A stretch of DNA of 47,248 nucleotides from a virus (IMGVR_UViG_2711768052_000011), one strand, 5' to 3'; numbered from the stretch's first letter, positions 1,285-39,167 are shown. The notes: generated by a model not told the origin, from the letters alone. A program made the numbers and translations.

Positions 1285-1601
1285 AATTCATAGATGTTTT
1301 TTACCATCCTGTGGATTTTTTGACGTTTTCTAAGTTTTTTCAGGTAGTTGTATTTTTTCTAAAAACCCATGATCTCGATTTTGCTGTTTATCTGAGGCCT
1401 TTTTATGTCCCATATATGCCCCAAAGGTGCTCCATGCAAAATATCTGGCGTAGTCTTCTTTCTTGCCAGTAGTTTTAGAGCTTTCACAATCCAGTCTCCT
1501 CCGCTAAAATTGATCACGGAAGACCTTCATATTAGAACTTGCTATACTCAAAAGCTAAAAGCCAGACTGTTGACGCAGCCGGGCTTTCATTTTTCAGATA
1601 C

Positions 1602-1622
1602 AAAAAAACCGCTCATGGCGGC
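1602..1622 (-). terminator. weak intrinsic terminator downstream of tfa
   Basis: On minus strand a short GC hairpin (CCGC/GCGG) followed by T7 run, immediately after tfa stop; stem only 4 bp. Confidence 0.3.
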
Positions 1623-1629
1623 TTATTCA

Positions 1630-2202
1630 TTACTCAACGTCAAGCGCTCGAATTGAAACCAAATCATCCAGGCCGCTCAACCTCTCTTTCATCTCCCGCT
1701 GGCGACGATAAATTTCGTCGTTGCGATCGACCTGCGCCTGCGCCATTGCTGCAGCCAGTTCTTCCAGTTCCGGCATCGACAGTTTCACCTGTTGATTATC
1801 GGCGTCACCCCACGTCAGAGCGGTTCGTGCTGTATCGAATTTCGCAGCCATTACCACCGGATAAAGACGGGCCAGCGAATCAGGGCCAGCATTCCAGGTG
1901 TGGTCGTTCCATTCGAACGTGAACGGCTTCGCCTCCTGCTCTGTACGCCACGCTTCGATTTCCCGCTTTTTGGCATCTTTCGCTACGGTGATAAGTTCAG
2001 GTGTTATGGTGAACGGGGCGATTTCACCCCATTTGCCACTCTGCAGTTCCTCCCAGATTTGCTGGCCTGTCGTTTCAGTGTCTTCTTGTGTGGCTGTATA
2101 GGGAATGGGAGCCTCCATCCCTTCAAATAAAACCTCACAGTCAATTGCGCCACTTTCAAGATAGCGGGCATTTCCTATTTTTTTTATTTCCATAAAATTC
2201 AC
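1630..2202 (-). CDS. tfa: tail fibre assembly protein (Tfa chaperone)
   Basis: 190-aa ORF directly downstream of and abutting tail-fibre gene; size and position typical of Tfa family. Confidence 0.8.
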   Translation of the reverse strand: MNFMEIKKIGNARYLESGAIDCEVLFEGMEAPIPYTATQEDTETTGQQIWEELQSGKWGEIAPFTITPELITVAKDAKKREIEAWRTEQEAKPFTFEWNDHTWNAGPDSLARLYPVVMAAKFDTARTALTWGDADNQQVKLSMPELEELAAAMAQAQVDRNDEIYRRQREMKERLSGLDDLVSIRALDVE

Positions 2203-3975
2203 CTAATAAACCCGGATAAATAGACCAATCATGATGCCATCAGAACCCACACTCCCCAGCCGTGAGCCCGACAACGCCCGGTATGTCCCCGAAAACGCAC
2301 CGCCTGCATACACAGAAATATCGCTGGTTTGTTGAATCGCGGGGTAGTCTGTTATCCCGACACACTTAAACTCAATAATCATAAGACGTGAGCCGGGATA
2401 CAGGTCACCACGATTTATCTGACGATTTGAATCTGAGCTGTAAGTTCCCTTGTACCCCGCCAGTACAAGACTGCCAATACCGTATCCGTCATATGTCGTT
2501 CCGGGGGTAATCCCGGACAGCGTAGCGACAACGGACGACGGCGTGTATTTCAGGGATTCCCACTCCATCAGTTTGCCAGTGGGCGAGTACCAATTCACAT
2601 GAACGCCACCATTAACACCGTAGAAAATAATATTTTTAGGTTGTTTTTCTGCTTCACCACTGGTATCGGCACTCGTCCAGATGACGTCCACAACACCAAT
2701 AAATAGTTCCCCCTCTATTACGACCCCGTTCTCCGGCCTCGTACTCACGGCATAACGTCCGGGGAGAGCGTTTTTTGCCCACGAGAGGAACATTGACCCT
2801 GACTGAAAATACACTCTGTCTTTGACAGTAAATATTTTCCCGAATCCGGACATGCCGGGGACAGCAAGACGACCGTCTGTGCAGTCGTAAATATCTGCCT
2901 GTGGTTCCATCGTGGCCGCGCTTTTTAGCCCCAGATTATCACGTGACTCCTGTTGTGCTTGTTCACCTGCTGCCGCAATCTCTGACAGATTACCGGACGT
3001 TTTCAGGGTGTTCGTCAGCAGGACATCAATGTCGTTTTTTGCCTGCTCAGCTGCGCGGGCATAACCTGCGGCTACCCGTGCGCTCTGTTCAGATGAGGCC
3101 GCGCTTTCCCCCGCACTTTTCACATCTTCCGCAGTGGCCTTTCTGTCACAGGCTGTGGCCGTTGCATCCTGTCTGGCGTTCTCCGCAAAGCGCTCAGCAT
3201 CATCACGTGCTGCTGCGGTTACCATCACATCCTGTGCGGTCTGCAGTGTGTTTCCTGCAACATTATCGGCGTGACTTTTCGCGTTTTGCGCACTTCGGGC
3301 TGCATTATCAGCGTGACTTTTTGCGCTCTGTTCGCTTCGGGCAGCGTTATCCGCATTGTTTTTTGATTCCTCTGCGCTGGATGCAGAATCATCTGCTGCC
3401 TGTTGAGCCTGCTTTACTGCATCTGTAACACTCTGCACACCCTGTTGCATCTGTCCGGCATTCTGCTCAACTTCTGCAGCCAGATGTTCAACGTGTTGTT
3501 TATCTTCGGCAACCGCGGTGGCGTTCAGCTGTACGTTATCCTCCAGCGTCTGACAGTCTTCCTTTATCTTCTGCGCATCAGCGACATGTTGCCCGGCCTG
3601 TTGTTCGCTTTCCGCTGCGGATTCGGCGCTCTGCTGCGCCTGTGCCACCATTCTCTCAAAGCGTTTCACCACGTCGGGTTTGAGGTCGCCTTCATCGGGA
3701 GCGGTCAGAAAGTCGTTCAGCGTGCCGGGCTTTGCGTCATCGTATACAGCAATGTCGCCAACACAGTACTCGTCGCGCCAGCCCTGTTTCAGATACACGC
3801 GATATTTTCCGGTCCGGGCCTCAAACGAATACTCCCCGTTATTTCCGGTCACCACATCAGCTTCAGTGCGCATCACCACTTCTGATGTGTTCACCCGGGA
3901 TTTCAGAATAATGTGGCATCCGGACATGGGGATGCCTGCGCCATCAGTCAGCGCACCATAAATTAAAACGGACAT
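2203..3975 (-). CDS. side tail fibre protein (Stf-like), second fibre
   Basis: 591 aa from internal Met MSVLIYGALTDGAG (ORF-track frame); conserved phage fibre N-terminal domain (GTLNDFL motif), Ala/Gln-rich shaft, distinct C-terminal domain; followed by tfa. Confidence 0.8.
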   Translation of the reverse strand: MSVLIYGALTDGAGIPMSGCHIILKSRVNTSEVVMRTEADVVTGNNGEYSFEARTGKYRVYLKQGWRDEYCVGDIAVYDDAKPGTLNDFLTAPDEGDLKPDVVKRFERMVAQAQQSAESAAESEQQAGQHVADAQKIKEDCQTLEDNVQLNATAVAEDKQHVEHLAAEVEQNAGQMQQGVQSVTDAVKQAQQAADDSASSAEESKNNADNAARSEQSAKSHADNAARSAQNAKSHADNVAGNTLQTAQDVMVTAAARDDAERFAENARQDATATACDRKATAEDVKSAGESAASSEQSARVAAGYARAAEQAKNDIDVLLTNTLKTSGNLSEIAAAGEQAQQESRDNLGLKSAATMEPQADIYDCTDGRLAVPGMSGFGKIFTVKDRVYFQSGSMFLSWAKNALPGRYAVSTRPENGVVIEGELFIGVVDVIWTSADTSGEAEKQPKNIIFYGVNGGVHVNWYSPTGKLMEWESLKYTPSSVVATLSGITPGTTYDGYGIGSLVLAGYKGTYSSDSNRQINRGDLYPGSRLMIIEFKCVGITDYPAIQQTSDISVYAGGAFSGTYRALSGSRLGSVGSDGIMIGLFIRVY

Positions 3976-4147
3976 ATTTTTCTCGCGATAAATTAAATCA
4001 GGAAGATGCTTCCGGAAGCGCAGGTCATTCAATATCCGGCGCGGTCGATGTATCAACACGGTTCAGCAACACCCGATACTTCTTCCGGACTGAAAGCAAT
4101 GATGCCTGTTCCTGTGTTGCATTTACATCTCACCTTTTCACCCGCGA

Positions 4148-4429
4148 TTAACCAACAGCCAGACTTAACAGACATGCTACAACCGGCATCGCAAAATCCA
4201 TAAGGCTTCTAACACCCCATACGCACGGATCAAAACCACCCTGCCACGGCATATTCATACGCTTGCCATGCCCGAACGTTTCAAGCCAGCGTTCTTCTGC
4301 CAGGGGGGCACTCACAACGAAGAACGTACAACCGACTATCGCACCGTAAACCCAGCTTCCGGTAAAAAGACCAACCAGTATCTGCGCAGCCACATCACAA
4401 AGCACATGAAGGAAAAGTGTTATATCCAT
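4148..4429 (-). CDS. hypothetical small membrane protein between the two fibre genes
   Basis: 93-aa ORF with two hydrophobic segments; no recognisable family; could be non-coding. Confidence 0.3.
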   Translation of the reverse strand: MDITLFLHVLCDVAAQILVGLFTGSWVYGAIVGCTFFVVSAPLAEERWLETFGHGKRMNMPWQGGFDPCVWGVRSLMDFAMPVVACLLSLAVG

Positions 4430-4439
4430 TATCCCCCCC

Positions 4440-7268
4440 TTATCCGATATCGCTTCGGGAAGTTGATAACAACTTTAATTCTGACTCAAGTTCATCAACT
4501 CTTTTTGTCAGTTTCTGAATATGGTGAATAAGCGGAACAACCAGACGATCATACATCACACCTTCAGCAACCATCCCATTATCAGACGCTATACCTGGAT
4601 CATCTTTGTCTGTAAGAGGACGCCAGTGAACATATTGCGGTGCTATCTCTCCGACTTCTTCTGCAATAAGGCCATAATGTCCCCAGTCCTTTCTGTCCCT
4701 TTCACAAGTCGAGCGATACCATACAGGACGAAGTTTCAACAGCTCATCCGCGTACTTGTCCTCTAAAGACTCGATATCCGTCTTGTATCGACGGGATGAA
4801 GTCGAACGAAAAACCATGTTGTAGCCAGCAATCGGACTTACGAACATGTTAGGACTATCGGTTGTTGTCTGAATGTCGAATATTTGCAAACAATAACAAG
4901 TTAACGTCTGGAAGTTTGCATCTAACGAGCCAGCTTCAAGTCTTGACGATGTGAGAAAATTCCTGTTTAAATTGTTAATCTCCGATATGCTGTAAGTTCC
5001 TATCTCAAGTGGTGTCGGCAGGTTTTTAGTATTGTACTGCCTGCGCCAGCCTGGCGAATAACCATCCCCATTGTAAACGTAAATAAATTCGGCGTTTACT
5101 TTTGCACCGGAAACGCTGGTAGTCGTTGCGGTGGTGATCCTGATTGTGTAGTTAGTCATGCCAAAGCTGGTTATTTCAATCAGTGCGCCAGCAAGCGGAA
5201 TAGTGCCGCATTTTGTTTCGCTATCCGGTATTGAGGCGTTATTAGCATAAGCCCACGAACAGCGAGCAATCCATGTACGCTGATTGAATGCGCCGTTATT
5301 TTGCAGCAGTGTAATAAATGACGATGTGGATAACGATTGTCCTGAATCGCCAGTATTCAGCCATGCCTGAGACGAAGCAGCAGCGCCGATGTTACCAGGC
5401 GTTAGAGTTATATCTTTCGTGCCGTCAAAAGCCACATTGTTAATGCTTCTCGCTGTCTGCAATTTGGTGGCGGTTGCCGCGTTCCCCTTCAGTGCCCCGG
5501 TGATCCCGCCAGTAACAGACAACGGACCTGAAATAGTCCCTCCAGTTGTTGGCAGTGCTCCAATATCTGATGGTGTAGGTTTCTGATGTGAGCTAAACAT
5601 CGTATAAACAACACCATCGGTAACGCCGGAAGGCTTACTCGCTGAATATGCTGGCGAGGTATAAACAGAAACTGACGCATTTGCAGTGCAATCCCAATGG
5701 ATATTTACACTCGTCGCATAATTGCCAATCTCAACGTAAATATCATATGTATCGCCGGATGTGTTGATCCAGGCGAAATTTGTTAATCCTGCGCCTGTTC
5801 TTTTCCACAAAGCTCCAGTAATCCCTTTGGGATTTCCATTGCCTGCTCGCAAAACCAGTTCTGAAATGCCTGCCTGCTGTGGGGAGCCGACGTTGTAACC
5901 AGCGCCACCAATCAATGTGATGTAAACGATGGAACTCGCTTGTGGCATGGTAACCGTAGCCAGTTTGAACCACCCTGCCCCGCCAGAGAAAGACATCGTT
6001 ACTGAATTGAAAGTGCCAATATCTTTCGGCGTTAATGTTATATCCGCTGTCAGTGCTTTCCCGTTAACTTTTCGGTTAGATGGTACCCTGCCATTCGCAT
6101 TGTCATTCGCTGCTTTAACTGCCTTCGGTGTCGCGGCAAGCGTTTCAGATGTACTGTTGGTTGCACTACTGAGCTGAACGATCCCCTTTTTCGTCGTGCT
6201 CGCATCCTCAAGCCCCACGGCGGATGCAATATCCTCCGCCCGTTTTGCTGCTGTCTCGGCGCGCGTTGCTGCAGATTCCGCCTTACTTTTGCTCTGAGCT
6301 GCCGCTGTCGCACTGCCAGCAGCCTCTGTCGCCTTCGTGGATGCCGTCGTGGCACTTCCCTTCGCTGCGGATGCTTGTCTGGTCGCCTCATCTTTTGAAG
6401 CAGACGCAGATGATGCCGATGACGCCGCCGAACTGGCGGACGATGCGGCTGCCGTTTTTGAGGATTCTGCACGGGTTTCCGACGCTTTCGCATTCGTCTC
6501 AGATGTCTTCGCTGCGGAAGCAGACCTCGTTGCTGCGCTGGCCTGTTCAGTGGCTTCGCCAGCCTTCGTTGTGGCTGTTGAAGCGGACGAGGCGGCGCTT
6601 TCTGCCGATTTTCCGGCGGCGGTGGCACTGGCTGAGGCCTGCCCGGCACTTGTTGACGCGGCACCGGCACTGGTGGCAGCCGCGCTTTTTGAAGACTCTG
6701 CAGCGGCAGCACTTTTTGATGCTTCAGTGGCCTTTGTTGATGCCGTTCCTGCGCTGGAAGATGCTGACTGAGCCGACGACGCGGCCTGTCCGGCTGACGT
6801 GCTGGCTGCGCGTGCTGAGCCTGCAGCATCGGTTGCATGAGTTGCCGCCTCACGGGCTGATGTGCCGGCATCGCTGGCTGACTTCTTCGCGGCTGCCGTG
6901 TTCTGTGCCACTGCGGACGCGTTACGCGCCACCTCTTCCACCATCAGTTCAAAACGGCGCAGTGCCTCCGGACGGGCATCATCCTCCGTCATGGCACCAA
7001 GAAAATCATTCAGCGTACCGGGTCGGGAATCTTCATACACGGTAATGGTCCCGGCATGTGATGGCGGGAATCCCTCCACCAACAGAATAACGCTGTACTG
7101 ACCATACTCAACGTCCATACTGTAACGCCCGGCTTCATCCGGATTTTCTGAGGCCACCGTGTTCACCACCACCGTGGTGCTGTTACGTTTTGCTTTCAGC
7201 TGGATTGTGCAGTTCTGTATCGGTTTACCTGCACCGTCTTTCAGTACACCTGAAATCTTTACTGCCAT
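4440..7268 (-). CDS. stf: tail fibre protein with lambda Stf-like N-terminus and C-terminal intramolecular-chaperone (peptidase S74-like) domain
   Basis: Start at MAVKISGVLKDGAGKP with GGGGTGA RBS; N-terminal approx. 110 aa and Ala/Ser/Thr-rich shaft match lambda Stf by recall; C-terminus has SSRRYKTDIE ... GLIAEEVGEIAPQYV typical of self-cleaving chaperone domain. Confidence 0.8.
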   Translation of the reverse strand: MAVKISGVLKDGAGKPIQNCTIQLKAKRNSTTVVVNTVASENPDEAGRYSMDVEYGQYSVILLVEGFPPSHAGTITVYEDSRPGTLNDFLGAMTEDDARPEALRRFELMVEEVARNASAVAQNTAAAKKSASDAGTSAREAATHATDAAGSARAASTSAGQAASSAQSASSSAGTASTKATEASKSAAAAESSKSAAATSAGAASTSAGQASASATAAGKSAESAASSASTATTKAGEATEQASAATRSASAAKTSETNAKASETRAESSKTAAASSASSAASSASSASASKDEATRQASAAKGSATTASTKATEAAGSATAAAQSKSKAESAATRAETAAKRAEDIASAVGLEDASTTKKGIVQLSSATNSTSETLAATPKAVKAANDNANGRVPSNRKVNGKALTADITLTPKDIGTFNSVTMSFSGGAGWFKLATVTMPQASSIVYITLIGGAGYNVGSPQQAGISELVLRAGNGNPKGITGALWKRTGAGLTNFAWINTSGDTYDIYVEIGNYATSVNIHWDCTANASVSVYTSPAYSASKPSGVTDGVVYTMFSSHQKPTPSDIGALPTTGGTISGPLSVTGGITGALKGNAATATKLQTARSINNVAFDGTKDITLTPGNIGAAASSQAWLNTGDSGQSLSTSSFITLLQNNGAFNQRTWIARCSWAYANNASIPDSETKCGTIPLAGALIEITSFGMTNYTIRITTATTTSVSGAKVNAEFIYVYNGDGYSPGWRRQYNTKNLPTPLEIGTYSISEINNLNRNFLTSSRLEAGSLDANFQTLTCYCLQIFDIQTTTDSPNMFVSPIAGYNMVFRSTSSRRYKTDIESLEDKYADELLKLRPVWYRSTCERDRKDWGHYGLIAEEVGEIAPQYVHWRPLTDKDDPGIASDNGMVAEGVMYDRLVVPLIHHIQKLTKRVDELESELKLLSTSRSDIG

Positions 7269-7332
7269 ATTCACCCCACAAAAAAGCCCGCCAGAATCTG
7301 CGGGCTGCCATAACACTGTGTTACCTGGCTAA

Positions 7333-7932
7333 TCAGAATTTATAACCGACACCCACGATGAAACCGTCAGTACGCCAGTCGCCACTGCCGGAACCTTCAT
7401 AAGCAATATCAATGGCAACGGATTCTGTCGGGTTAAACTGCACGCCAGCTCCCCACGCCAGAGACGTGTTGCTGTGGCGACCGTCATCACTTCCGGTCAG
7501 CACATCGTGCGTTTTCCCCTTGTTGTCAGTTACGCGGAGATAATCCCCGGAGAAAGTCGACACACGGCTGTAAGCCATACCCGCCATCGCATACGCGCTG
7601 AACCATTCATTCACGCGCACAGACGGCCCCGCCATCACGCTGAACCAGCGGTTACGCACGGAATCTTCATGCCAGCGGGTATCGCTGTAGTGCGTTTTTT
7701 GCTCATCCTCAGCATTGGCATAACTGAAGGACGTAATCAGCCCCAGCGTGTCCGTAAACTCATAACGGTATTTCACGTTAATCCCGTTCAGATTATCGCT
7801 GCCGGGAGCGTTCGTACGGGCATGAAGATACCCTGCGCTCAGTGTGGACTGATGTTCAGACGCCCATGCAGGCGCACCGGATACGGACAGACAGATGGCT
7901 GCGGACAAAATAACAGCACATAATTTACGCAT
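7333..7932 (-). CDS. lom: outer membrane protein Lom (Ail/Lom family)
   Basis: 199 aa, signal peptide, near-identical to lambda Lom by recall, ends in aromatic beta-barrel terminus GVGYKF. Confidence 0.9.
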   Translation of the reverse strand: MRKLCAVILSAAICLSVSGAPAWASEHQSTLSAGYLHARTNAPGSDNLNGINVKYRYEFTDTLGLITSFSYANAEDEQKTHYSDTRWHEDSVRNRWFSVMAGPSVRVNEWFSAYAMAGMAYSRVSTFSGDYLRVTDNKGKTHDVLTGSDDGRHSNTSLAWGAGVQFNPTESVAIDIAYEGSGSGDWRTDGFIVGVGYKF

Positions 7933-7999
7933 AATTACCTCTCGCTTTTCTGCAATAAAAAAGGCGCCATTTCTGGCGCCCGTATCTGGGTTATAAAAT

Positions 8000-10900
8000 T
8001 CAGCTAATCGTGATGCCTGCAGTGGCTTTCTTCATCACCACAACCAGCAAATCGCTGATACTTGCTGTGGGATACCAGTTATTTACCAGCCATGCTGACA
8101 CCGAAAACTCCAGCGTCATGTGGCCGTGACCGGCAGGCATATCAATAACACCACTGTAAATCAGCGTATTATCCAGCGCGGTACGGTTATAAATTTCAGC
8201 ACCGTTTTTCCGTACTATCAGGCGGCATGACGAATAAATATCGTTATTCTCCCGCTCATGTTTAGCGCCGCTGAATGCCACCGCCGGAATAACAATCTGC
8301 CGGTCAAACGGCTGATCGTCATAAACCCTGACGGTGATGGTCCCTGATGGCCACCGTTCCGGTGCACGGGAGTCCCGGGGGAAAGCTTTGCCCACTGTTT
8401 TAACGAGATCGCCTTCAATCTGGTTGGCGGACAGTTTTCCCAGAACCCGACAGTTCTCGTTAATCGTGACGTTGTTGAGCGTCCCGGAGTTCGCATTCAC
8501 GTTACCGCTGATATCGGCATTTTTCGCCGTCAGCCGCCCGTCCGGTGTCAGGGAAAATACCGGAGGATTACCGCCGCTGGTAATGGTGGGAGCCGTCAGG
8601 CGTTTCAGGAACACTTCGTTCATGAATATCTGATCGCCCTGCCCAACAAACATTGGCTTTGTGTTGCCATTCGCAGGATTAATCATCGCAATCCTGTCTG
8701 CCGCCAGCAGCACCTGACTCTGCATGCCGTCAGGGGTGTTCTCAATACCGGCACCAATACCCGCGATATAAAGGCGTCCGTCCTGCATCTGCTGCAGCTT
8801 CACAGCCCACATGCTGTTCAGGTTATTATTTGTATCAACCTGAACCTTCTGTATCTGCTGAATTGCCGCACTCTGGTCTTCCAGTTTCTTATTGACGGTC
8901 TGCGTGATTTCATTGCTGACATCCGTAATGGACGTCCTGATTTCAGCCAGGTCAGGCGCAAGCTGACCGTTATCAATCTGCGTCCACAGCTCCTGAGCCA
9001 GATGGGTTTTCCCTATCTCGCCTTTGAAAAAATCCAGATAACCGGATGCATCATCACTCGGCTGACCAACAGCCTCCACGAATGCCGATTTGCCAACGGT
9101 GTTCACACTGCGGATATAAAAGTAATAATCATGGCCCGGTTTGATATTGATACTGGCGGCTATCCAGTACAGCGCCGTGCCAAGATAGCGTGCTGTGGTT
9201 TCAACCTGCCTGATATCGGTAATCCGCTTTTCCGAGAACCAGAACTCAAACTGTACCGTCGGGTCATAAACGGCAAGATGCGGCGTGGCGGTTATCTGAA
9301 AATAGCCCGGTGTCAGCTCAATCCTCGACGGTGCTGCCGGTGCGGCAATCCGGAACGATACCGACGCCGGATCGCCCTGCTGCCCCCACGCATTTACCGC
9401 CCGGACTGTCAGCCTGTAGTTCCCCAGCGCCAGTTGCGTGAAGCGGTATGTGGTTTCCGTCGTCCGGGCCGTGCTGACCAGCCGCTCACTGCTGTCATCC
9501 GCTGTTACGGTCAGACGGAGCAGGAAGCTCACGCCCTTCACCACCTTCGGCGTGTCCCAGCGCGCCAGCACCTGATATTCCCCGCTGTCTGCGGTGACTT
9601 CGGCGGTCAGGTGCTGCACCGCTGGCGGCGTGACACCATTCACCGTGCTGCTCTGGTCGCCGTCAAAGTGCGCCCCGTTATCCACGATGGCTTCTTTTTC
9701 CGGTACATGCTGCACGGCGGTGATGGCATACGTGCCGTCGTCGTTCTCACGGATACTCACGCAGCGGAACAGGCGCTGGCGCAGCGTCGGCAGCTTCAGC
9801 CCCCACACACTGTATCCGGCAACGCCGTCAGGAACACGGCTCACTTTTACCTTCACGCCGTCGGTGACGGACTGGACCTCCACGCTGACCGGATTGCCAC
9901 TTCCGTCAACCAGGCTTATCAGCGTGGTACCGGAGGATGGCAGCGTGATTTCACGGTCGAGCGTCAGCGTCCGGGTCTGGCTGTTCACCGCCAGCACGCG
10001 CCCACCGGTGCTGATACCCGCATAGTCATCATCACAGATTTCAATGACATCGCCCGGCACATGGCGAAGCCCTTCTGCGCCCACGCTGAAGTCCACGGTC
10101 TGCGTTTCCAGCAGTTCCGTTTTAATCAGCCACAGCCCGGCGCGGTGCGCCTGCCCCCGGCTGGTACAGCCAAAGGCATCCATCTTCGTGACGTTACGAC
10201 CGTAACGGGCAATGGCCTGCGTGTCCTCCACAAGCTCTGTCGCCGTCTCCCAGCCGTTATTCGGGTCAATCCAGTTCACCTCAACGGCATTATGGCGGTC
10301 CTTCAGGGCGCTGAAGCTGTAGCGGAACGGCGCACCATCATCCGGCATCACCACATTACTGCGGTTATAGGTCCACACCTTATCCGACGGTCGGTCCTGC
10401 ACGAACGTCAGCGTCTGCCCGTTCCATACCGGCATACAGCGCATCGCAGAGCAGAAATCACTGAGCACATCCCACGCCTTGCGCTGTGTGGTCAGGTACG
10501 CATTACAGGTGATGCGCGGCTCCGTGCCGCCAAAACCGTCCGGCACCGACTGATCGCAATGCTGGCCGATGACATACAGCGCCCATTTGTCCACATCCGC
10601 CGCACCAAGACGTTTCCCCATGCCGTAGCGCGGATGGGTCAGCATATCCCACAGACACCAGGCCATGTTGTTGCTGTATGCTGGCTTAAACGTTCCGTCC
10701 CAGATACCGCTGTATTGCCGCGTCTGCGGGTTATAGTTCGACGGCACCTGCAGAATGCGCCCGCGCAGATGATAATTACGGCTCACCTGCTGGCTGCCGA
10801 ACTGCTCCGAGTCCACCTGCACGCCGACCAGTGCCGTGTTCGGGTAGCACTGTTTCACATCGATAATTTCGGTGTATGACGACCAGAGCGTTTTGTTCTG

Positions 10901-11479
10901 CAGCTGGTCTGTGGTGCTGTCCGGCGTCATCCTGCGCATCCGGATATTAAACGGGCGCGGCGGCAGGTTATCCACCACCACCGAGGCCAGATACTGTGAA
11001 GTGGTTTTACCCTTAATGGTGATGTCTTTTTCCGTCACCCAGCCACCGTTACGTTGTATCTGAACCAGCAGGCGGACTTCCGATGGATTCCTGTCCCCCT
11101 TTGAGGTGGTTTCCACCAGTGCCTGCACGCCGAAAGTAAAACGCAGACGGTCAATGTTTGCCGACGTGATGGTCCGGGTGATCGGCGTGTCATATTTCAC
11201 TTCTGTACCGAGCACCGTCTCGGAGCCGGAGGATTCAAATCCCTCCGGCGGTGTCTGCTCCTGCTCACCGGCCCTGAACACCACCGTGACGCCGGATATA
11301 TTGGTATTCCCCTCACTGTCCAGCACCGGCGTACTGTTCAGCAGCACGCTTTTTAATCCATCCACCGGACCTTCAACCGGCCCTTCGCTGATGGCATCGA
11401 TCACACTCAGCAACTGCGTGGACTTCAGGTTGTCCTTCGCTTCGCGCGGGGTATGCCCCTTACTGCTTCCTTTACCCAT
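8000..11479 (-). CDS. J: host specificity / central tail fibre protein J
   Basis: 1159 aa, lambda gpJ-like sequence and size, position after I. Confidence 0.95.
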
Positions 11480-27240: not shown

Positions 27241-27617
27241 AGCGTTTATCATTAACATTTGCAGATAAGATGACGTACATCATTGAAACGCCATTCAGCC
27301 ATATACCGGCAGCATTCGTAGTTGCACTCCGTAACTCTGCGACTAAGGTTAAAAACATGGCCCTCTTTTGCCACCGGCAAATCTTCAATGGATTTCCCCT
27401 GCCGGTTTTTTATTTTCGTCGATGCATAACATTGCATTTACATCAATAGCGGCTATTGTCATTAGTATGTTGCATCAATGCATGGGTGGTATTGGCGGTC
27501 TTCGCCGGCCGCTTCTGTGTAGCTGCTCCCTGTGACCGGTTTTTTATTTCTCACATTACAGCAACCCCTTAGAGTGAAGGGCTGCTGTAATGCCTGTTAC
27601 TCAGTAACTACCGCACC

Positions 27618-27926
27618 TTACGGTAATTTCATGAAGGCAAATACCGGACAGCCCGGATGACGAGCATCTTCTGTTGCTTCCAGCATTGACTCACCAAACC
27701 ACTCCGTCGTGGCGCGACCGTCAGCTGCTTTGTAGTGGATCAAGTACTGGTTTTCGCCATCCGCATACTGCGCACGGGCTTTAACCTCACCCCATTCATC
27801 ACTGATGCGCATCTCCACCAGTTGAGACAACTCAAACTTAAACGGAGCAGCATCAGCACCAATTACAATCGGTTTGTTTTCTGTTTTTCCATCATCGTCT
27901 CCTGATATCGAAGCCCGTCGCCGCAC
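27618..27926 (-). CDS. hypothetical protein between lysis cassette and cos
   Basis: 102-aa ORF (apparent GTG start, no clear SD); soluble, no recognised motif. Confidence 0.3.
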   Translation of the reverse strand: MRRRASISGDDDGKTENKPIVIGADAAPFKFELSQLVEMRISDEWGEVKARAQYADGENQYLIHYKAADGRATTEWFGESMLEATEDARHPGCPVFAFMKLP

Positions 27927-28066
27927 CGGGCACTGATCAACATTTGAGTATTCGCGGCGACAGAAAGAATTTATTTTATTGAATAGCCACTAACACAGAA
28001 TTTCATGCTTTCCGGACGCTGGCGCGCCCTTCATTTTTCAGCAAAATATTCCGCTATTACAGATGA

Positions 28067-28249
28067 TCAGTTCTGCAGACACTGCCGAACGCCATCGATA
28101 AGCTGGCAGACCTGAGAAGCCGTATCGAAAAGCTGGCGCGCCTTATCCAGGCTGACGCATCCCACCAATAAAAAAGGCACCAGTATCGCTACCAGTGCCC
28201 ATTTCGCCGCCGTTCGCGGCATTCTGTGTGTCCAGTGTTTTCTGCTCAT
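28067..28249 (-). CDS. putative lysis-associated lipoprotein (o-spanin/Rz1-like candidate)
   Basis: Start MSRKHWTHRMPRTAAKW; basic n-region, hydrophobic core, lipobox LVGC; 14 nt downstream of endolysin stop; short, not proline-rich. Confidence 0.4.
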   Translation of the reverse strand: MSRKHWTHRMPRTAAKWALVAILVPFLLVGCVSLDKARQLFDTASQVCQLIDGVRQCLQN

Positions 28250-28263
28250 AACACACCTGGTTA

Positions 28264-28650
28264 TCAGCGTTTCAACTGAAAGTGAGGCCCGTCTTTCAGT
28301 GTTTTCCAGTCCCCACCCCATTCGATGGCAGTTCCCAGCTCTGCGGCAGCCTGCTTAAATGCCTGCGCGATTTTCTCGTACAGAGGCCAGTCCCATGACA
28401 CCTGGCTGCCAATGTAGGCCACAACATCCACCGCATCACCTGTAAGGTGGCGGCTGTTCATGGTCTGGCTTTTCCCTGCCGCTACCAGCTGTTTCTGGCG
28501 ATACTTACTGCGCAGACCTTCCGTGATACCAAAATCAACCTCCGTCAGCTCCAGCGCACGGCGAACGACAGCAACCAGCTGTGGTTTGACGCCCTCCAGA
28601 TTTTTTTCACTGCGACGGCTGAATCTGAATTTACCCGGCATCATATTCAC
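28264..28650 (-). CDS. endolysin, L-alanyl-D-glutamate peptidase (peptidase M15, T5-Lys type)
   Basis: Zn-binding motifs HxxGxAxD (RHLTGDAVD) and DxxH (KDGPHF); overall pattern resembles T5 endolysin by recall. Confidence 0.8.
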   Translation of the reverse strand: MNMMPGKFRFSRRSEKNLEGVKPQLVAVVRRALELTEVDFGITEGLRSKYRQKQLVAAGKSQTMNSRHLTGDAVDVVAYIGSQVSWDWPLYEKIAQAFKQAAAELGTAIEWGGDWKTLKDGPHFQLKR

Positions 28651-28922
28651 CTCAACAATGGAAAGATTTTTGTGACGTTCCCGCGTGCGCGTATCACCAG
28701 CACGCAGAACAGCAGGTTAAAAAACACTTCCAGCCAGCCCGTTGCTAACGGGCGACCACACAGATAGCTGAGGGGCGCAAAGGCATACAGCAGCATCAGC
28801 AGCCAGGCCAGCCATGACATCAGCGGTTTGTGTCTGGAGTCACGACGACGATAAAAAAAGAGCGTCAGCACGATAACCGTGCATAACGCCACATTCAGTA
28901 ATCCGGGAAGGTTACTTAACAT
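28647..28922 (-). CDS. membrane protein in lysis cassette (holin/antiholin candidate)
   Basis: 91 aa, three hydrophobic segments, GGAGG RBS, start overlaps preceding gene stop. Confidence 0.45.
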   Translation of the reverse strand: MLSNLPGLLNVALCTVIVLTLFFYRRRDSRHKPLMSWLAWLLMLLYAFAPLSYLCGRPLATGWLEVFFNLLFCVLVIRARGNVTKIFPLLR

Positions 28923-29304
28923 TGCCGCCTCCTCCGCCCCGCAGGCGCGAGAACAGGCCGGACACCAGTGATGCGATATCCTGCTGGTGGATGAACGACA
29001 GAATCTTCACCGACACCACCGCCACCAGCACCGCACACAGTGCATCCGCAGATGTACCGTCATAACCTGTTTTTGATGCAATCCAGGCTGACAGTACACG
29101 CGCCCCCAGTACACCAACAATGAACGACACCAGAAAATGTGCCGCCACACGCCAGGCTGAAATCTTCTGCGGCATCGTTGCCACAAACAACGCCCCGGCG
29201 AACGCACCAAACACAATCCCGAAATCCGTTCCGGTAAACAGCCCGAATACCGTCGCCCCGCCGAGCGCCGCAGCCGTGCCGGAACCGGATAAGGGTTCAG
29301 ACAT
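28912..29304 (-). CDS. putative holin (3-TM, Gly/Ala-rich helices)
   Basis: Start MSEPLSGSGTAAALGG with GGAGA RBS; multiple TM segments, charged C-terminus. Confidence 0.5.
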   Translation of the reverse strand: MSEPLSGSGTAAALGGATVFGLFTGTDFGIVFGAFAGALFVATMPQKISAWRVAAHFLVSFIVGVLGARVLSAWIASKTGYDGTSADALCAVLVAVVSVKILSFIHQQDIASLVSGLFSRLRGGGGGNVK

Positions 29305-29391
29305 ACTTTTTCTCCTGTAAATAAAAAAGGGCCACCAACGGCCCATAAAAACACCCCATCAAAGGCACCCGCAGATGCCTTTTGTGTGGTG

Positions 29392-29544
29392 TTATTCAGA
29401 TTTACGCAGTAAAGGCCGGAGCACGACCAGCGCCATCGCCACCAGCACACCATCTGCCAGCACCGACATCAGCCGTCCGGTGAAATCCACCACCACTACC
29501 AGAAACAGCAGGATGGCAGCCAGCACAAGGCGCGCACTTTTCAC
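29392..29544 (-). CDS. small hydrophobic membrane protein (approx. 50 aa), translationally coupled
   Basis: GTG start overlaps stop of upstream gene (GTGA); product VKSARLVLAAILLFLVVVVDFTGRLMSVLADGVLVAMALVVLRPLLRKSE; not in ORF track (below 60 aa). Confidence 0.35.
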   Translation of the reverse strand: MKSARLVLAAILLFLVVVVDFTGRLMSVLADGVLVAMALVVLRPLLRKSE

Positions 29545-29966
29545 AGGTACTGCTCCAGCGGCAACTGCAACGCCTGTGCAATTTTCTTGAGCTGCACTTC
29601 TTCATCAGGACCGATGCCGTCCTGGTCAGCAATATCCAGACACAGACACAGCACGTTAACTGCATCATCAGTACCGGCAACATCAGCCAGCTGACGAAGG
29701 GCTTCGGCATTGGCAGAACGCGGTGACGCTTCATAACGGGCGCGGATATTTGCACTCATTTGTGCAATCTCACCCGAGAACGGCGCAAAGGCAGGAAGTG
29801 CTGCAATGGTTTTCTCCAGCACAGCGATTTCTTTCGCATCACAGGTGCCGTCGGCGAATGCTATGGAATACGCACCCCAGACGGTCGCCTCCACTGCATC
29901 GCGGTTCTCCATCTTCTTCACTTCGGTAATGGCCTTGCGGGTTTTCTTTTTGAAAATACCAAACAT
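29541..29966 (-). CDS. hypothetical protein, TerB-like features, first gene of lysis cluster
   Basis: 141 aa soluble acidic protein with ADG and acidic patches reminiscent of TerB-like fold; AAGGAAAAG RBS. Confidence 0.45.
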   Translation of the reverse strand: MFGIFKKKTRKAITEVKKMENRDAVEATVWGAYSIAFADGTCDAKEIAVLEKTIAALPAFAPFSGEIAQMSANIRARYEASPRSANAEALRQLADVAGTDDAVNVLCLCLDIADQDGIGPDEEVQLKKIAQALQLPLEQYL

Positions 29967-30335
29967 CGTGACTTTTCCTTTTAGTGGGTGAGCCTGCGCC
30001 CGGGGGTGACCAGCCCACAGAGAAAGTCACACTGACCATCCCGTAAGCTCACCCCTGAAAGGCTCTGTGGTTTTTGATGTGCGCCGGGCGTGGCGCAAAG
30101 AAATGAAATAAGACTTACCTGAAATTAAGGTTAATCTGAGGATTTAAACCATTTTTAAAGCTTAGTAATATCAACTCGTCTCCTGAAGGAGACAGATACT
30201 TATGATTCTTCATGGACTTTGTCCCGCGGCGTTAATCCGACGGCCGCGCTTTTTTTGCGCCATATTCATCGCTAACTTACATGGCATTGCCACACGGGCA
30301 TTATCAGTGTCCGTGTTTCTTTTTTTAGGATTCAG

Positions 30336-30364
30336 AATAAAAAAAACCGCCCGGTGGAGGCGGT
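30336..30364 (-). terminator. intrinsic terminator in late leader
   Basis: Minus strand ACCGCC-(7 nt loop)-GGCGGT followed by T8. Confidence 0.6.
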
Positions 30365-30631
30365 AAAGGATGTATTTCCAGGTTTTGCTTAATATATGAA
30401 TAATCTCAATGTCATGGTGTTATTTACAACACCAGAATGATGCATCACCGACCCTGCCAGGAAATATAAAATCTCCGCCGAAAATGCACCATTCTGCTGC
30501 CGTAAAAAAATCAGCACTGCGGCTACACCCGACCCCAAATCATAGCCAGAGAACAGAATGTTTTTAACAATCTACCCCCACGTAATAAAAAAATACGTCA
30601 GTGCCGTCACTATAAGGCGTATTTCAAATGT

Positions 30632-30680
<49 letters not shown>

Positions 30681-30833
30681 TGCTCTATCCGGATGAGCTA
30701 GTGACGGTTTTATTGCCACATCCGTAACAACAGTCGACAGGAATAATATACATTCAGAATCAGCCGCCTTAGCTAATTGTGCAACCATCTGCTCTTTGCA
30801 AGTGCACTTAACGTCCTGCGCCACTTTTCAGGC

Positions 30834-30862
30834 ATAAAAAAACCCGCTCAGTGGCGGGATCT
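30834..30862 (-). terminator. intrinsic terminator (candidate tR')
   Basis: Minus strand CCCGC-(6 nt)-GCGGG followed by T8. Confidence 0.55.
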
Positions 30863-30989
30863 TTTGATAAAAACGACAAAGGCACCATTAAGGTGCCTTT
30901 TACACAGGGGCAGCAGGCTTGTCATCACCTCATCGCTACTCCTGGCTTCCTGTTCGGAAGTCTCACAAGTCCCATCAGGGTACAGCGAC

Positions 30990-31018
30990 AGTATCAGCCA
31001 ACACACTATGTGTGTCAA
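30990..31018 (-). promoter_or_regulatory. candidate sigma70 promoter (possible late promoter pR')
   Basis: Minus strand TTGACA, 17-nt spacer containing palindrome ACACACTATGTGTGT, then GATACT. Confidence 0.35.
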
Positions 31019-31053
31019 TATAAATTCATATCGAATTCGATAATCGTTTTCGA

Positions 31054-31455
31054 TTATCGATACAGATAAGCCATCCCTATCCCGTGCAATACCGCCCGTT
31101 TAATATTCTCAAACTCATCTTCCGCAATCATAGGAACAATATAATTTCGTCCCTCCCAGGTTCTGGTTTTTATGCGATCCAGTCGGCTCAATGAAACCGT
31201 CATCAACATGTCACATTTTACCCAGCAAGTAATATGCTCATTACCAGGTATGGGGTTTTCTGATAACTCATGATGGCAATCTCTGCGAGGGAGCGGTTCA
31301 GTAGTGCTTATTGGTACCACTGTTACCAATTGATTGTTGTGCCTGTTTCTGGACACGACCACCACTGGCCTGACCTTGACTATTTCCGGAACAACCATTC
31401 CCCGAAAATCACACATTAAAACAGAACGAACAGACGGCTGATACTTTAATACCAT
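31054..31455 (-). CDS. MazF/PemK-family toxin-like protein (orphan, no adjacent antitoxin)
   Basis: Start MVLKYQPSVRSVLMCDFRGMVVPEIVKVRPVVVVSRN parallels MazF N-terminus (MVSRYVPDMGDLIWVDF...RPAVVLS) by recall; ORF track extends to 31533. Confidence 0.5.
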   Translation of the reverse strand: MVLKYQPSVRSVLMCDFRGMVVPEIVKVRPVVVVSRNRHNNQLVTVVPISTTEPLPRRDCHHELSENPIPGNEHITCWVKCDMLMTVSLSRLDRIKTRTWEGRNYIVPMIAEDEFENIKRAVLHGIGMAYLYR

Positions 31456-31555
31456 AAATCTCTTTGCCTGATAATGACGACTTGTGAACTCCACTACAAA
31501 CAAAATGATTCTGCTGAACAGGCAGTTTCGCACTATACATTATAACCTGTTAAGC

Positions 31556-31585
31556 CAACAAAAAAACCCGCTCGGCGGCGGGATT
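31556..31585 (-). terminator. intrinsic terminator downstream of Q-like gene
   Basis: Minus strand CCCGC-(6 nt)-GCGGG followed by T7; same core as terminator at 30834..30862. Confidence 0.5.
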
Positions 31586-31648
31586 TGCTTACTTTGCCAT
31601 CGAGTACAAAATCGGCAAAATATCAGATTTGCACGAAATATATGCCTT

Positions 31649-32344
31649 TTAATCTACTTTTGCAACACTTTGCTTTGAAAATGCCGTCTTTTGTTCTGAA
31701 CGTGTTCTCATCACAAACAATAAAGCCTCACTATCCAGCCGGTGGAAAATGTGTTTCATTGCAACCCAGTGACCAGTAAATGTTTTGGACCAGTTTTTTG
31801 TTGTTACTCCCGCCAGTAATGCCAGTTCCTGATATTCATAAGTTTCACGCCCAGCTAGCTCACTCTTCACATCCTGTGCCGCCAGCCAGATTAATTTTTT
31901 CAGGCGCTCCCGTGTTTTCTCCGCAATTTTTCTGGTACCAGATTGCGCGTTAAATTCATTCCACGCCCACTGTGTTATCGCAATCTGGTGTTCCCAGCAA
32001 ATGCTGCCGCTGTAACACCACAGCAACCAGGCTTTATAGTGTTCTTCAAGAGACAGAACCGCCCGTCGCCATGATGATGTCGAAAACTCAACCTGACTTA
32101 CCAGAGGAATTGACGTCCTCTTTGCCAGCGATTGTTTCCCCGGGATTGGTGGATTATCCCGCGTTATCATTTTTCCGGTCACTTCATCGCGGTACCGGAT
32201 TTTTTTACGCCTGTAACGCCCTGTATCAAACATGGCATTCTCCTGCCAGGCTTCAAGCTGACCTTTTGTTGCCTCACTCAAATCGGCGGTGGCAATAATG
32301 AGCTGCTCACGAACAAACTGTAAATACTGGTTATTCATGCGCAC
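31649..32344 (-). CDS. putative late antiterminator Q-like protein
   Basis: 231-aa ORF immediately downstream of rusA (10-nt overlap) and upstream of lysis region; sequence not confidently matched. Confidence 0.5.
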   Translation of the reverse strand: MRMNNQYLQFVREQLIIATADLSEATKGQLEAWQENAMFDTGRYRRKKIRYRDEVTGKMITRDNPPIPGKQSLAKRTSIPLVSQVEFSTSSWRRAVLSLEEHYKAWLLWCYSGSICWEHQIAITQWAWNEFNAQSGTRKIAEKTRERLKKLIWLAAQDVKSELAGRETYEYQELALLAGVTTKNWSKTFTGHWVAMKHIFHRLDSEALLFVMRTRSEQKTAFSKQSVAKVD

Positions 32345-32694
32345 TCCAGCCCTGTGATTTTTATCCCCAACCGACCACCAGGAACGACCTGACCGCGCAC
32401 AATATTGATTTCATCAAACTGCTCGTCGTCGATAAGCAGTCCCGCATACGTCAGCGCATCCAGCGGTGCTTTCAGAATATTGTCCAGGTCACGACGGCGC
32501 TTATCCGGCGGCTCTGCAATGATCTTTATCGCCAGCCTTCCGGACAGGTTTAATTTCAGCCGCTGCTGGCGAACAATAAGCGCCACATCACGGCGATAAC
32601 GCTCACCGGCTTTTGATACAAAATATGTGCTGCCACGACGTCGCCAGTAGGTGTTCACCGTCGGCGGGTAAGGCAAAACAAACTCTATACGCAT
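32335..32694 (-). CDS. rusA: crossover junction endodeoxyribonuclease RusA (Holliday junction resolvase)
   Basis: 119 aa; motifs PPxxNxYW and RRRDLDN plus acidic catalytic residues match RusA. Confidence 0.85.
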   Translation of the reverse strand: MRIEFVLPYPPTVNTYWRRRGSTYFVSKAGERYRRDVALIVRQQRLKLNLSGRLAIKIIAEPPDKRRRDLDNILKAPLDALTYAGLLIDDEQFDEINIVRGQVVPGGRLGIKITGLECA

Positions 32695-32706
32695 CAGTAA
32701 CCTCTT

Positions 32707-33681
32707 TTACCCGAGCACACCGGTTGCAAAGGCGTGATCAAGAAAACGAAAAATTAAATCAATCTGGGAACCATGCTTTTCTTCAAATGCCAGCGGATCA
32801 GCATGAAGTTCGTTGTGATGCTCCCGGCACAACGGTAGCGTGAAAATATCGTGGGCTTTTGTCCCTATTCCGCCCTGACCATGACCAATCAGGTGATGGG
32901 GATCGTCGGCTGGCTTACCACAACACGCACACGGCTGTGTCTTTACCCAGCGCGTATATTTCTCATTTACCCAACGGCGACGTTTAGGTCGCTTCATGAA
33001 AGATTCCGGAGACTCCGGATCAACAGCAATGCTGACCACCGTCTTTTCCTGTGGTGGGTTTTGCTGGTGGGCGTGAGGCAGCGGCGCAAGATTTTTTGTG
33101 CGCTGCTTCAGTATGCTGATGGCGGTCTGCTCTCCCGGTACGATGTCGCTTTCGCGGTACACCGAGCGAATTTTTTCCGCACGTAACCCCAGAGAACGAC
33201 GTAATACTACCTCCGGTAGTGCGTCCGCCACCTGATTGCAGACAGCCCACCAGGATAATTCAGCCAGCGATAATTCCCGCTCCTGTGTGCCATTCATTGC
33301 ATGGCGCATGACGTCAATCATCCATGCTGACAGGTTTTGGTGAGCAAGTTGCTCAAGTGATTCGGAGGACTGGTCACGCAACTGGTTGTCACAGTGCCAG
33401 CACAACACCATCGCGCCAGCACCGTAACGATGTATGACGGTTTCGCTGTGATGGTAATCACCATGAGGCCACTGGCAGGATTTAATATGGCGCAACAGCC
33501 AGTCAGACAATGCACCAGCACCACCAGCAGCACGAATCACCCGCTCATCGCTGAAAAATGGCAGTAATGATTTATCCTCCGCCAGCGGCTGGCGAACGGC
33601 AGGGACGACTCCGGACGGCAGACCGCGCATGCTTTTCGGTTCAGGCTCCACCAGCACTCGAGGGTTATGAAATACTTGCAT
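32707..33681 (-). CDS. prophage protein, YdfU-like (DUF968-type), C-terminal Cys/His cluster
   Basis: Internal Met MQVFHNP chosen because longer ORF overlaps upstream gene; C-terminus CACCGKPADDPHHLIGHG ... CREHHNELH; position as ydfU in K-12 Qin. Confidence 0.6.
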   Translation of the reverse strand: MQVFHNPRVLVEPEPKSMRGLPSGVVPAVRQPLAEDKSLLPFFSDERVIRAAGGAGALSDWLLRHIKSCQWPHGDYHHSETVIHRYGAGAMVLCWHCDNQLRDQSSESLEQLAHQNLSAWMIDVMRHAMNGTQERELSLAELSWWAVCNQVADALPEVVLRRSLGLRAEKIRSVYRESDIVPGEQTAISILKQRTKNLAPLPHAHQQNPPQEKTVVSIAVDPESPESFMKRPKRRRWVNEKYTRWVKTQPCACCGKPADDPHHLIGHGQGGIGTKAHDIFTLPLCREHHNELHADPLAFEEKHGSQIDLIFRFLDHAFATGVLG

Positions 33682-33754
33682 GGATTCACGGCCCGGCCTA
33701 AGGACCACCAGCCCGAGTTCCGGTACCAGAACAGGTCGAAGTAATATCCGCACG

Positions 33755-34033
33755 TTACCTCCAGATCCGTTGCTGGTATGTGCGGGATGGGCGCGGTGGG
33801 CGTTCGGAATAAGGGAGCCTGACATAGATTATCCAGTGACGATAATCGAGGCTGAGGGCTTTCTTAATCTCGTATCCGCGTCTGCGATAGTTATGAATTA
33901 GCCATTCGGCCTGTTCTTCAGTACATGGGTCATGCTGGAACCAGTCAGATTTGAAAGTGCGGGAACGCCGCCCGTGCCTGCTGGCAAAGACGGCAGAATC
34001 ATCAGAATTGTGTAATTTGGTATCGTGCGCCAT
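33755..34033 (-). CDS. hypothetical protein (rem-like position)
   Basis: ORF between hokD and ydfU-like gene; start uncertain (ORF track to 34162). Confidence 0.3.
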   Translation of the reverse strand: MAHDTKLHNSDDSAVFASRHGRRSRTFKSDWFQHDPCTEEQAEWLIHNYRRRGYEIKKALSLDYRHWIIYVRLPYSERPPRPSRTYQQRIWR

Positions 34034-34199
34034 CGGTTGTCTCTGCTGGCGCAGCAGGTGCCAGTTGTTCAGGCTGGCGTGCGAATTGTAAACCAGAATG
34101 CTAGGAAAAAACAAAACCCGCCGAAGCGGGTTAAGTGCGGGTGCGTTGAGGATGCCTGACACATCAGAGGTGGCGAGGGATTCTCCCCCGCCTGGTCTC

Positions 34200-34355
34200 T
34201 TACTCCTCAGGTTCGTAAGCTGTGAAGACAGCGACCTCCGTCTGGCCGGTTCGGATTCGTACCTCGCAGAGGTCTTTCCTCGTTACCAGTGCCGTCACTA
34301 TGACGGTTAAACAGATGACGATCAGGGCGATTAACATCGCCTTTTGCTGCTTCAT
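34200..34355 (-). CDS. hokD: Hok/Gef-family membrane toxin
   Basis: 51-aa product MKQQKAMLIALIVICLTVIVTALVTRKDLCEVRIRTGQTEVAVFTAYEPEE matches E. coli HokD (RelF) by recall; AAGGAG RBS. Confidence 0.85.
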   Translation of the reverse strand: MKQQKAMLIALIVICLTVIVTALVTRKDLCEVRIRTGQTEVAVFTAYEPEE

Positions 34356-34566
34356 AGCCTGCTTCTCCTTGCCTTTCGGCACGTAAGAGGCTAACCTAGA
34401 TTTGCCGTTCATAGATTGAGCCTCAGATTAATGTTAAGCGTCTTGCAGGACGCGTAATGTTAACTGGGGCTTTTCTCTATCTGCCTTTGGTGTTCATGCC
34501 TGAGACAGATAGCCTCAAGCACCCGCAGCCATTCTACTTAACTCCCGTTACCTCGCCAATATAAAA

Positions 34567-34656
34567 TCAATCAGAAAGGCGATCCATAAGAACAACAGCA
34601 AGACAATAAATTGCCATTACAGCTGCAATAGCCAGCGCACATTTGAGAACCAGCAC
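34567..34656 (-). CDS. candidate small hydrophobic peptide (29 aa), possible type I toxin-like
   Basis: AGGAGG, 5-nt spacer, GTG start; product MLVLKCALAIAAVMAIYCLAVVLMDRLSD; hand-derived, not in ORF track. Confidence 0.3.
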   Translation of the reverse strand: MLVLKCALAIAAVMAIYCLAVVLMDRLSD

Positions 34657-35840: not shown

Positions 35841-35923
35841 ATGAGACTTCATATTATAACTATAATTATGTAAAAAAGGCTGGTATTTTATACCTTGAGG
35901 AAAATAGATAAGAGGAATGAGGT

Positions 35924-38006: not shown

Positions 38007-38046
38007 AAGCCCTCCTGAAAATTACCTCATGACCAGAAATTAACAC

Positions 38047-39156: not shown

Positions 39157-39167
39157 GGCTACCTCAT

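Follow-up and report, generated by a model that had tools for sequence, protein, structure and literature searches.

Among the described systems closest to the locus considered here is the Stf/Tfa module of Ur-lambda (stf/tfa, orf-401/orf-314/orf-194). In the Ur-lambda virion, twelve Stf anchors make up a collar where gpV meets gpM, and this collar bears four trimeric fibres (PMC12617516). Ur-lambda Stf combines its collar domain with an Ala-rich coiled-coil shaft and a T4 gp37-like tip, and this tip needs a separate protein, Tfa (Pfam family Caudo_TAP). A related module lies in IMGVR_UViG_2711768052_000011, a 47,248-nt stretch of Escherichia coli chromosome (the window; positions are counted from its first nucleotide), which holds a truncated ydfJ gene (1-1284) followed by a lambda-like prophage of about 46 kb that ends with an integrase. 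Here two fibre genes, termed stf1 and stf2, occupy the place after J and lom that stf takes in Ur-lambda, with the same order of a terminator followed by the fibre start. Compared with Ur-lambda, tfa has been cut to a 41-codon scar and a second fibre has been added.

An earlier note on this DNA had predicted two tandem fibre genes downstream of lom, and open reading frame (ORF) and Pfam analyses bear this out: both genes are complete, both proteins start with the same kind of anchor, and their C-termini are unrelated. The note had further proposed that the two fibres use different chaperone strategies. Two routes are indeed encoded, one through a C-terminal Peptidase_S74 (S74) domain in Stf1 and the other through a separate small gene behind stf2, but the product of this gene is a DUF4376 protein rather than a Tfa. 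The most likely outcome, to which we give an even chance, is that the virion would carry the two fibres together and thereby have two primary adsorption specificities; the dual receptor specificity implied in the note is a plausible prediction. A search of the literature on lambda-like phages with two side fibres found nothing relevant. Tandem fibres with different helpers also occur in other prophages.

Stf1 has the anchor of a lambda side fibre, as predicted. Its residues 1-134 match phage_tail_N (PF08400) with an E-value of 5.8e-72 (240.5 bits against a cut-off of 26.6), and its first 95 residues are 91% identical to the collar domain of Ur-lambda Stf (PDB 9e7m; E 3e-51). Stf1 would mount as Ur-lambda Stf does, with its anchors in the collar at the gpV-gpM junction. 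The shaft that follows is, like that of Ur-lambda Stf, rich in Ala (38% Ala, 24% Ser, 12% Thr), and it generates the expected long spurious ORFs (6050-6871, minus strand; 6224-7045 and 6337-6771, plus strand). It also contains an in-frame tandem repeat with a 21-nt unit (6624-6673). The related strain EC21Z-048 has a 21-nt insertion in the shaft, and therefore shaft length changes through repeat slippage. Residues 357-396 match the Pfam family Phage_fiber_2, and a later segment resembles fibre protein S of phage Mu (Table 1).

Toward its C-terminus Stf1 departs from Ur-lambda Stf. Judged by sequence, its tip is of the T5/Dhillonvirus lateral-fibre kind; tip and chaperone domain together are 53-67% identical to the lateral-fibre tips of virulent E. 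coli siphophages. The predicted intramolecular chaperone domain was recovered by Pfam (Peptidase_S74, PF13884; residues 824-880, 35.8 bits against a cut-off of 22), and a Ser-Lys dyad, in which the Lys lies five residues beyond the Ser, is present at its start (Ser824/Lys829). The motif S824-S-R-R-Y-K829 aligns with S-D-E-R-H-K, with which the released GA-1 chaperone (3gud) begins, and SSRRYKTDI also aligns to the C-terminus of a T5-like L-shaped fibre (8hqz); similarity to solved structures is weak (E 0.1-1). T5 pb1, K1F endosialidase, and the GA-1 neck appendage likewise end in an S74 domain of about 120 residues that begins with an S-x-x-x-x-K dyad. T5 pb1 is anchored through a separate collar protein, in contrast to Stf1 with its lambda-type collar domain. 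Thus far the parallels suggest that Stf1 would fold by means of its own S74 domain and then cleave itself before Ser824, with Lys829 as the partner residue.

Stf2 begins with a more divergent anchor. Residues 1-134 match phage_tail_N with an E-value of 2.9e-58 (196.1 bits, same cut-off), and the protein has no further Pfam match. The anchor is about 43% identical to that of Stf1 and about 41-43% identical to the Ur-lambda collar domain 9e7m (E 3e-15 to 2e-14, 59.7 bits). The shaft holds an in-frame tandem repeat with a 42-nt (14-residue) unit at 3257-3351. For the tip, residues 340-590, no relative returned by search exceeds 50% identity; members of its family are fused to three different anchors in other proteins, and a structural model of the tip (pLDDT 71) resembles phage receptor-binding proteins.

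The small gene behind stf2 starts after a 9-nt gap, and its Shine-Dalgarno sequence, AGGTGA, overlaps the stf2 stop codon. Its product matches DUF4376 (PF14301) at 62 bits against a cut-off of 25. The candidate identity as a Tfa was ruled out by Pfam and by profile-profile comparison: the protein gives no match to Caudo_TAP (PF02413, the Tfa family), which as a control recovered Mu U, Mu U', and five lambda-type or myovirus Tfa proteins with E-values of 1e-18 to 1e-44, and hhalign assigned a 0.7% probability to its relationship with Tfa. An AlphaFold2 model of the helper (pLDDT 87) has no relative among solved structures, and it matches many predicted viral DUF4376 proteins in BFVD. Mu U has been stated in the literature to contain DUF4376 (PMC7882524); in the Pfam scan, Mu U and U' match Caudo_TAP alone, and this statement was not reproduced.

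Proteins of the DUF4376 family are known to serve fibres encoded just upstream. Gp27 of Alteromonas phage V22, whose gene directly follows that of fibre gp26, is needed for a functional fibre and is absent from the final complex (PMC7289586). Similarly, the H-fibre of Campylobacter CJIE1 requires its downstream DUF4376 gene (PMC7882524). The stf2 locus shares with both systems a small DUF4376 gene directly behind the fibre gene; the kinship is at the level of the Pfam domain only, and the fibre tips differ. In E. coli, the DUF4376 partners are 76-84% identical across contexts and lie behind every examined fibre of the Stf2 tip family. The partner tracks the C-terminal family ...PGxYxALSG...GLF[IV]Rxx, whatever the anchor or shaft, across five other contexts, and the subfamily is present in 136 of 5426 complete E. 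coli genomes. By analogy, the DUF4376 protein is most likely the intermolecular chaperone of Stf2, and it would most likely fold the Stf2 tip in trans and then be left out of the fibre, as V22 gp27 is. In two lambda-like prophages, genes for ipaH-family type III secretion effectors lie directly beyond the DUF4376 gene (L008, from RMDEC465, 582-2333; L096, 5179-6821), in keeping with the effector-exchange locus known to lie behind genes for tail fibres.

The full arrangement is rare among the complete E. coli genomes, occurring in 4 of the 5426 (SE11, GPEC79-13-647, EC21Z-048, and A30), and stf1 and stf2 travel together, as is shown by several draft genomes in which their accession numbers are adjacent. 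In all four complete genomes, RefSeq/PGAP splits stf1 into a pseudogene 'missing C-terminus' and a separate 'tail fiber domain' coding sequence. Taken at face value, these flags would mean that stf1 is broken and that stf2 is the sole working fibre gene, a reading that we consider extremely improbable and that is refuted at the sequence level. The stf1 ORF is uninterrupted, at 958-985 codons, in the window and in all four relatives. The split is an artefact that homology-guided annotation produced from a mosaic protein. Furthermore, the exact 942-residue Stf1 has been deposited at full length and belongs to a cluster of full-length members. The gene is also under purifying selection, with a dN/dS of 0.09-0.16: it differs from that of SE11 by 30 synonymous and 8 non-synonymous changes (dN/dS 0.09) and from that of A30 by 20 and 10, respectively. 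A pseudogene assignment for stf1 is ruled out by the continuous ORF and the full-length deposits.

The stf2 ORF is likewise intact in the four complete genomes. Its exact product is WP_064759256.1, which falls in a cluster with many full-length members of 590 residues. The condition that the earlier note set for its own refutation, one of the two fibre genes being a truncated pseudogene, does not hold, since both proteins have full-length clusters and stf1 is continuous in the four relatives; neither is truncated.

Alignment of the first 95 residues places the anchors in three groups. Type A comprises lambda, phage 21, Stf1 of the window, and Stf1 of RMDEC465, with mutual identities of 88-97%. 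Type B comprises Stf2 of the window and of RMDEC465 and the second fibres of ETEC4090, E. coli W, Rac-SA53, and a P2-like prophage, with mutual identities of 71-96%; a 5'-truncated B-like copy in L040 is 61-66% identical to the members of this group. Type B is 38-48% identical to type A. Type C, which is 53% identical to the lambda type and 40-47% identical to type B, is found in two other lambda-like prophages, on the only side fibre, which comes directly after lom and again has a DUF4376 partner. This pattern of anchor subtypes is the one mildly new point, and every component belongs to a known family.

In favour of mounting, stf1 and stf2 are intact, coupled to their neighbours, and probably co-transcribed, and the tandem of a type A and then a type B fibre recurs, in RMDEC465 and L127, with a divergent B-like copy in L040. 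In addition, the anchor tolerates divergence, because type C serves as a sole side fibre at 53% identity to the anchor of lambda.

Several observations weigh on the other side. Among 80 sampled IMG/VR loci with type-B anchors, at least 71 are contractile-tail contexts, in which the usual order is baseplate J, fibre, tfa, type-B fibre, and DUF4376, and three are lambda-like, this prophage being one. In none of the 80 does a type-B fibre stand as the sole fibre after lom. The other lambda-like copies are split (L127), truncated at the 5' end (L040), or located in a prophage with a frameshifted J (RMDEC465). The Shine-Dalgarno sequence of stf2 is weak, and the rarity of the full arrangement also counts against mounting. 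Finally, the changes between stf2 and its A30 counterpart, which are scattered over the gene, number 4 synonymous and 20 non-synonymous, compared with the counts for stf1 given above. This excess suggests relaxed constraint, but the numbers are small: the dN/dS of stf2 rests on just 7-24 changes, and very recent divergence inflates dN/dS.

Most of these observations, and the abundance of orphan remnants in the locus (the tfa scar and the orphan S74 ORFs discussed below), would be consistent with a passenger cassette: Stf2 and its DUF4376 partner would have been brought in from a contractile-tail prophage along with the tfa 3' end and be intact and co-transcribed, but the type-B anchor would find no docking site on the lambda-like tail, so that only Stf1 is on the virion and the second module is heading for decay. 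We regard this explanation as possible, though somewhat doubtful. It does not readily account for two ORFs that are intact in all four complete genomes, for the many full-length members of the 590-residue cluster, or for the few non-synonymous changes in the DUF4376 gene within the lineage. Moreover, the type-B anchor still retains 43% identity to the lambda collar domain (E 3e-15), and the type C anchor, itself well diverged at 53%, works as that of a sole side fibre elsewhere.

If both fibres are mounted, Stf2 might either be mixed into the tip collar or form a separate ring elsewhere, perhaps at the neck. Both outcomes count as dual mounting, and the estimates for them overlap with the even chance given above. 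A neck site has been considered for Stf2 because the neck is the one structure common to long non-contractile and contractile tails. In Vibrio phage XM1, the collar spike gp40 attaches at the neck, to connector and tail terminator (PMC10457771). A virion with Stf1 on the tip collar and Stf2 on a neck collar, in the manner of XM1 gp40, would be consistent with a match between the type-B N-terminus and this neck-bound protein (7kjk; E 3.9e-7), whereas type A (Stf1) gives no match at E<=10. It would also be consistent with the 74-86% identity of type-B anchors between siphovirus and myovirus contexts, and with the position of type B in all sampled loci that include upstream sequence, where it comes after another fibre and the tfa of that fibre (in the contractile-tail prophages, a baseplate fibre). 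However, type B scores higher against the lambda tip-collar domain (59.7 bits) than against XM1 gp40 (33 bits), and the latter match is partly coiled coil. No lambda-like phage is known to have neck fibres, which also counts against separate sites. We judge such a division of sites unlikely. More speculative still is the broader idea that the type-B fibre and its DUF4376 partner constitute a portable 'plug-in' second-fibre cassette, usable on contractile and non-contractile tails through a common structure such as the neck, in which case the virion would have self-maturing Stf1 in a collar at the tip and chaperone-dependent Stf2 in another at the neck; this we hold to be improbable.

However Stf2 may be mounted, the probable source of its gene can be traced. 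The second-fibre block (tail1-tail4) of the phiP27/Rac-SA53/E. coli W type has the same order of tfa 3' end, type-B fibre, and DUF4376. Identity to this block is 85-86% for the Stf2 anchor of the window and 80-84% for its DUF4376 partner, but at most 56% for the receptor-binding tip. The contexts differ as well: the elements ahead of the phiP27-type block are a fibre attached to the baseplate and an intact tfa, whereas in the lambda-like prophage considered here they are a lambda-type fibre with S74, the small membrane ORF, and the tfa scar. The scar, which was overlooked in the earlier note and which PGAP labels 'tail fiber assembly protein, missing N-terminus', retains only the last 41 or so codons (32+9), with a conserved Trp codon changed to TGA. 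The conserved C-terminal Tfa motif is present and the first 150 or so codons are gone; it is a remnant rather than a gene. Homology to the myovirus-type block (tfa end, stf2, DUF4376) extends to 4033 and homology of the phage 21 type (small ORF and tfa remnant) begins at 4064, and since the switch falls between these positions, the recombination joint lies within the conserved tfa 3' end. Stf2 and DUF4376 are encoded in a two-gene cassette that probably entered by recombination within this end, from the block of fibre, tfa, type-B fibre, and DUF4376 that contractile-tail prophages of the phiP27/Rac-SA53-like and P2-like kinds carry as standard. The locus is a mosaic, an ordinary outcome of phage gene shuffling. 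In a P2-like prophage of STEC367 (L093, 5943-8209), a type-B fibre and DUF4376 follow gene D at the end of the tail cluster, and the cassette adjoins a DinI-like gene and an integrase, a cargo-like position.

The small ORF between the two fibre genes, which had been proposed to encode a membrane protein, has three hydrophobic segments by hydropathy (residues 1-23, 24-45, and 73-93). It matches phrog_1443 (E 4e-37), has homologues in 53 phages, including phage 21, and is translationally coupled to stf1, with AGGGGGGGA five bases before its ATG. Its last 5 or so residues differ by a frameshift from homologues of 97 residues. A role in superinfection exclusion is only a guess. In the IMG/VR loci, homologues of the ORF usually lie behind an ORF containing S74, which is itself often an orphan fragment after another complete fibre, and in about a third of the loci a tfa remnant follows. 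A role as a specific partner of S74 fibres was considered and rejected: the phage 21 copy follows a lectin-type fibre and a 92-residue ORF, and in A30 the ORF is deleted. The A30 deletion is a clean one of 300 bp (4150-4449 of the window) that removes the small ORF together with the stf1 stop codon and lengthens stf1 to 985 codons; this prophage adjoins uspF/ompN instead of ydfJ.

Many IMG/VR loci (L012-L091) carry orphan S74 ORFs of 234 or 346 residues directly upstream of the small-ORF homologue and behind a complete fibre, and a few have duplicated tfa remnants and DUF4376 fragments as well. Taken together, these remnants resemble a graveyard in which older fibre modules have been left, and such modules accrete in the region behind stf.

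The layout of the cluster (Table 1) suggests joint expression. The small ORF is coupled to the stf1 stop and the DUF4376 ORF to the stf2 stop, each with a good Shine-Dalgarno sequence. Inside the cluster, the terminator scan found weak stem-loops only (5-7 pairs), without a T run. Because there is no strong internal terminator and a good one follows the last gene, both fibres should be late products. All four genes lie at the end of the late operon and, by analogy with lambda, would be read by Q-antiterminated transcription. Switching between fibres by an invertible segment, as in Mu or P1, was ruled out, as neither inverted repeats nor an invertase were found in 1285-8000; Turner and phi458, phages that do have invertases near their fibres, are single-fibre loci. 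There are no deletion-prone direct repeats longer than 42 nt between the two anchors, and NCBIfam gave no matches for any of the four proteins (Stf1, the small ORF product, Stf2, and the helper).

Table 1. Positions of the fibre genes, their parts and neighbouring features in the window, and of two type C loci in their own numbering
Feature	Position	Strand	Basis
J	8000-11479	minus	
lom (Ail/Lom outer-membrane protein), upstream landmark	7333-7932	minus	Pfam Ail_Lom, E 2.4e-127
Intrinsic-terminator-like hairpin between lom and stf1, followed by GGGGTGA and the stf1 ATG	7285-7306	minus	terminator scan, sequence
stf1, side tail fibre, 942 residues from ATG, stop codon included	4440-7268	minus	ORF
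Stf1 residues 1-134, lambda-type (type A) collar anchor	6867-7268	minus	phage_tail_N
Stf1 residues 135-350, Ala/Ser/Thr-rich shaft	6219-6866	minus	composition
Stf1 residues 621-757, segment like fibre protein S of phage Mu	4998-5408	minus	PDB 8ju3 residues 197-328, domain E 3.5e-30
Stf1 residues 758-823, distal tip predicted to stay after cleavage	4800-4997	minus	
Stf1 residues 824-942, Peptidase_S74 intramolecular chaperone	4443-4799	minus	Pfam
ORF of 93 residues, three hydrophobic segments	4148-4429	minus	ORF, hydropathy, phrog_1443
tfa scar	3998-4120	minus	translation, PGAP note
stf2, second fibre, 590 residues, stop codon included	2203-3975	minus	ORF; phrog_2636, E 1e-173
Stf2 residues 1-134, type B anchor	3574-3975	minus	phage_tail_N
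Stf2 residues 340-590, receptor-binding-type C-terminal domain ending ...GLFIRVY	2206-2958	minus	
DUF4376 ORF	1630-2202 (190 residues, GTG) or 1630-2193 (187 residues, ATG)	minus	Pfam
Intrinsic terminator closing the fibre operon, at the prophage edge before truncated ydfJ	1606-1624	minus	terminator scan
Type C locus L096 (CFSAN029787)	7001-8987		
Type C locus L098 (OkiPb01715)	6995-9672		

The surrounding prophage is lambda-like, inserted in ydfJ, which is the Qin site, and apparently complete. The closest strain (L095) is 99.8% identical over the fibre region (1285-8000) and 98.9% identical over the structural region (7122-27603). The prophage looks complete because this relative has the full gene set (integrase, excisionase, repressor, replication, Q, lysis, terminase, head, and tail), with pseudogene flags confined to the fibre region. 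The prophage is an intact relative, at the same site, of the defective Qin prophage of K-12. The early region (about 27600-47248) is mosaic relative to the closest strain, with blocks of 88-97% identity and gaps; in that strain, it contains dicB, ydfABC, hokD, a MazF-type toxin gene, and a TerB-family gene.

Several receptor-binding proteins encoded in a row are also found in K1-5/SP6 (dual tailspikes), DT57C (LtfA/LtfB), and T4 (long and short fibres), an arrangement that broadens or layers host recognition. In those phages co-mounting has been demonstrated and the adaptors are known, whereas here co-mounting is predicted from the genes. The anchors do provide a sequence rule, in which lambda-type anchors mark first fibres and type-B anchors mark add-on fibres with DUF4376; this rule aids the reading of fibre loci and the spotting of mis-annotation in RefSeq. 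If stf2 is a passenger, the locus would be a clear example of how recombination at the tfa 3' end stacks fibre modules. With both fibres mounted, the phage would be a natural and inducible lambda-like one that combines two primary adsorption specificities with two folding routes, and it would be a useful template for lambda-based delivery particles with swapped or doubled fibres.

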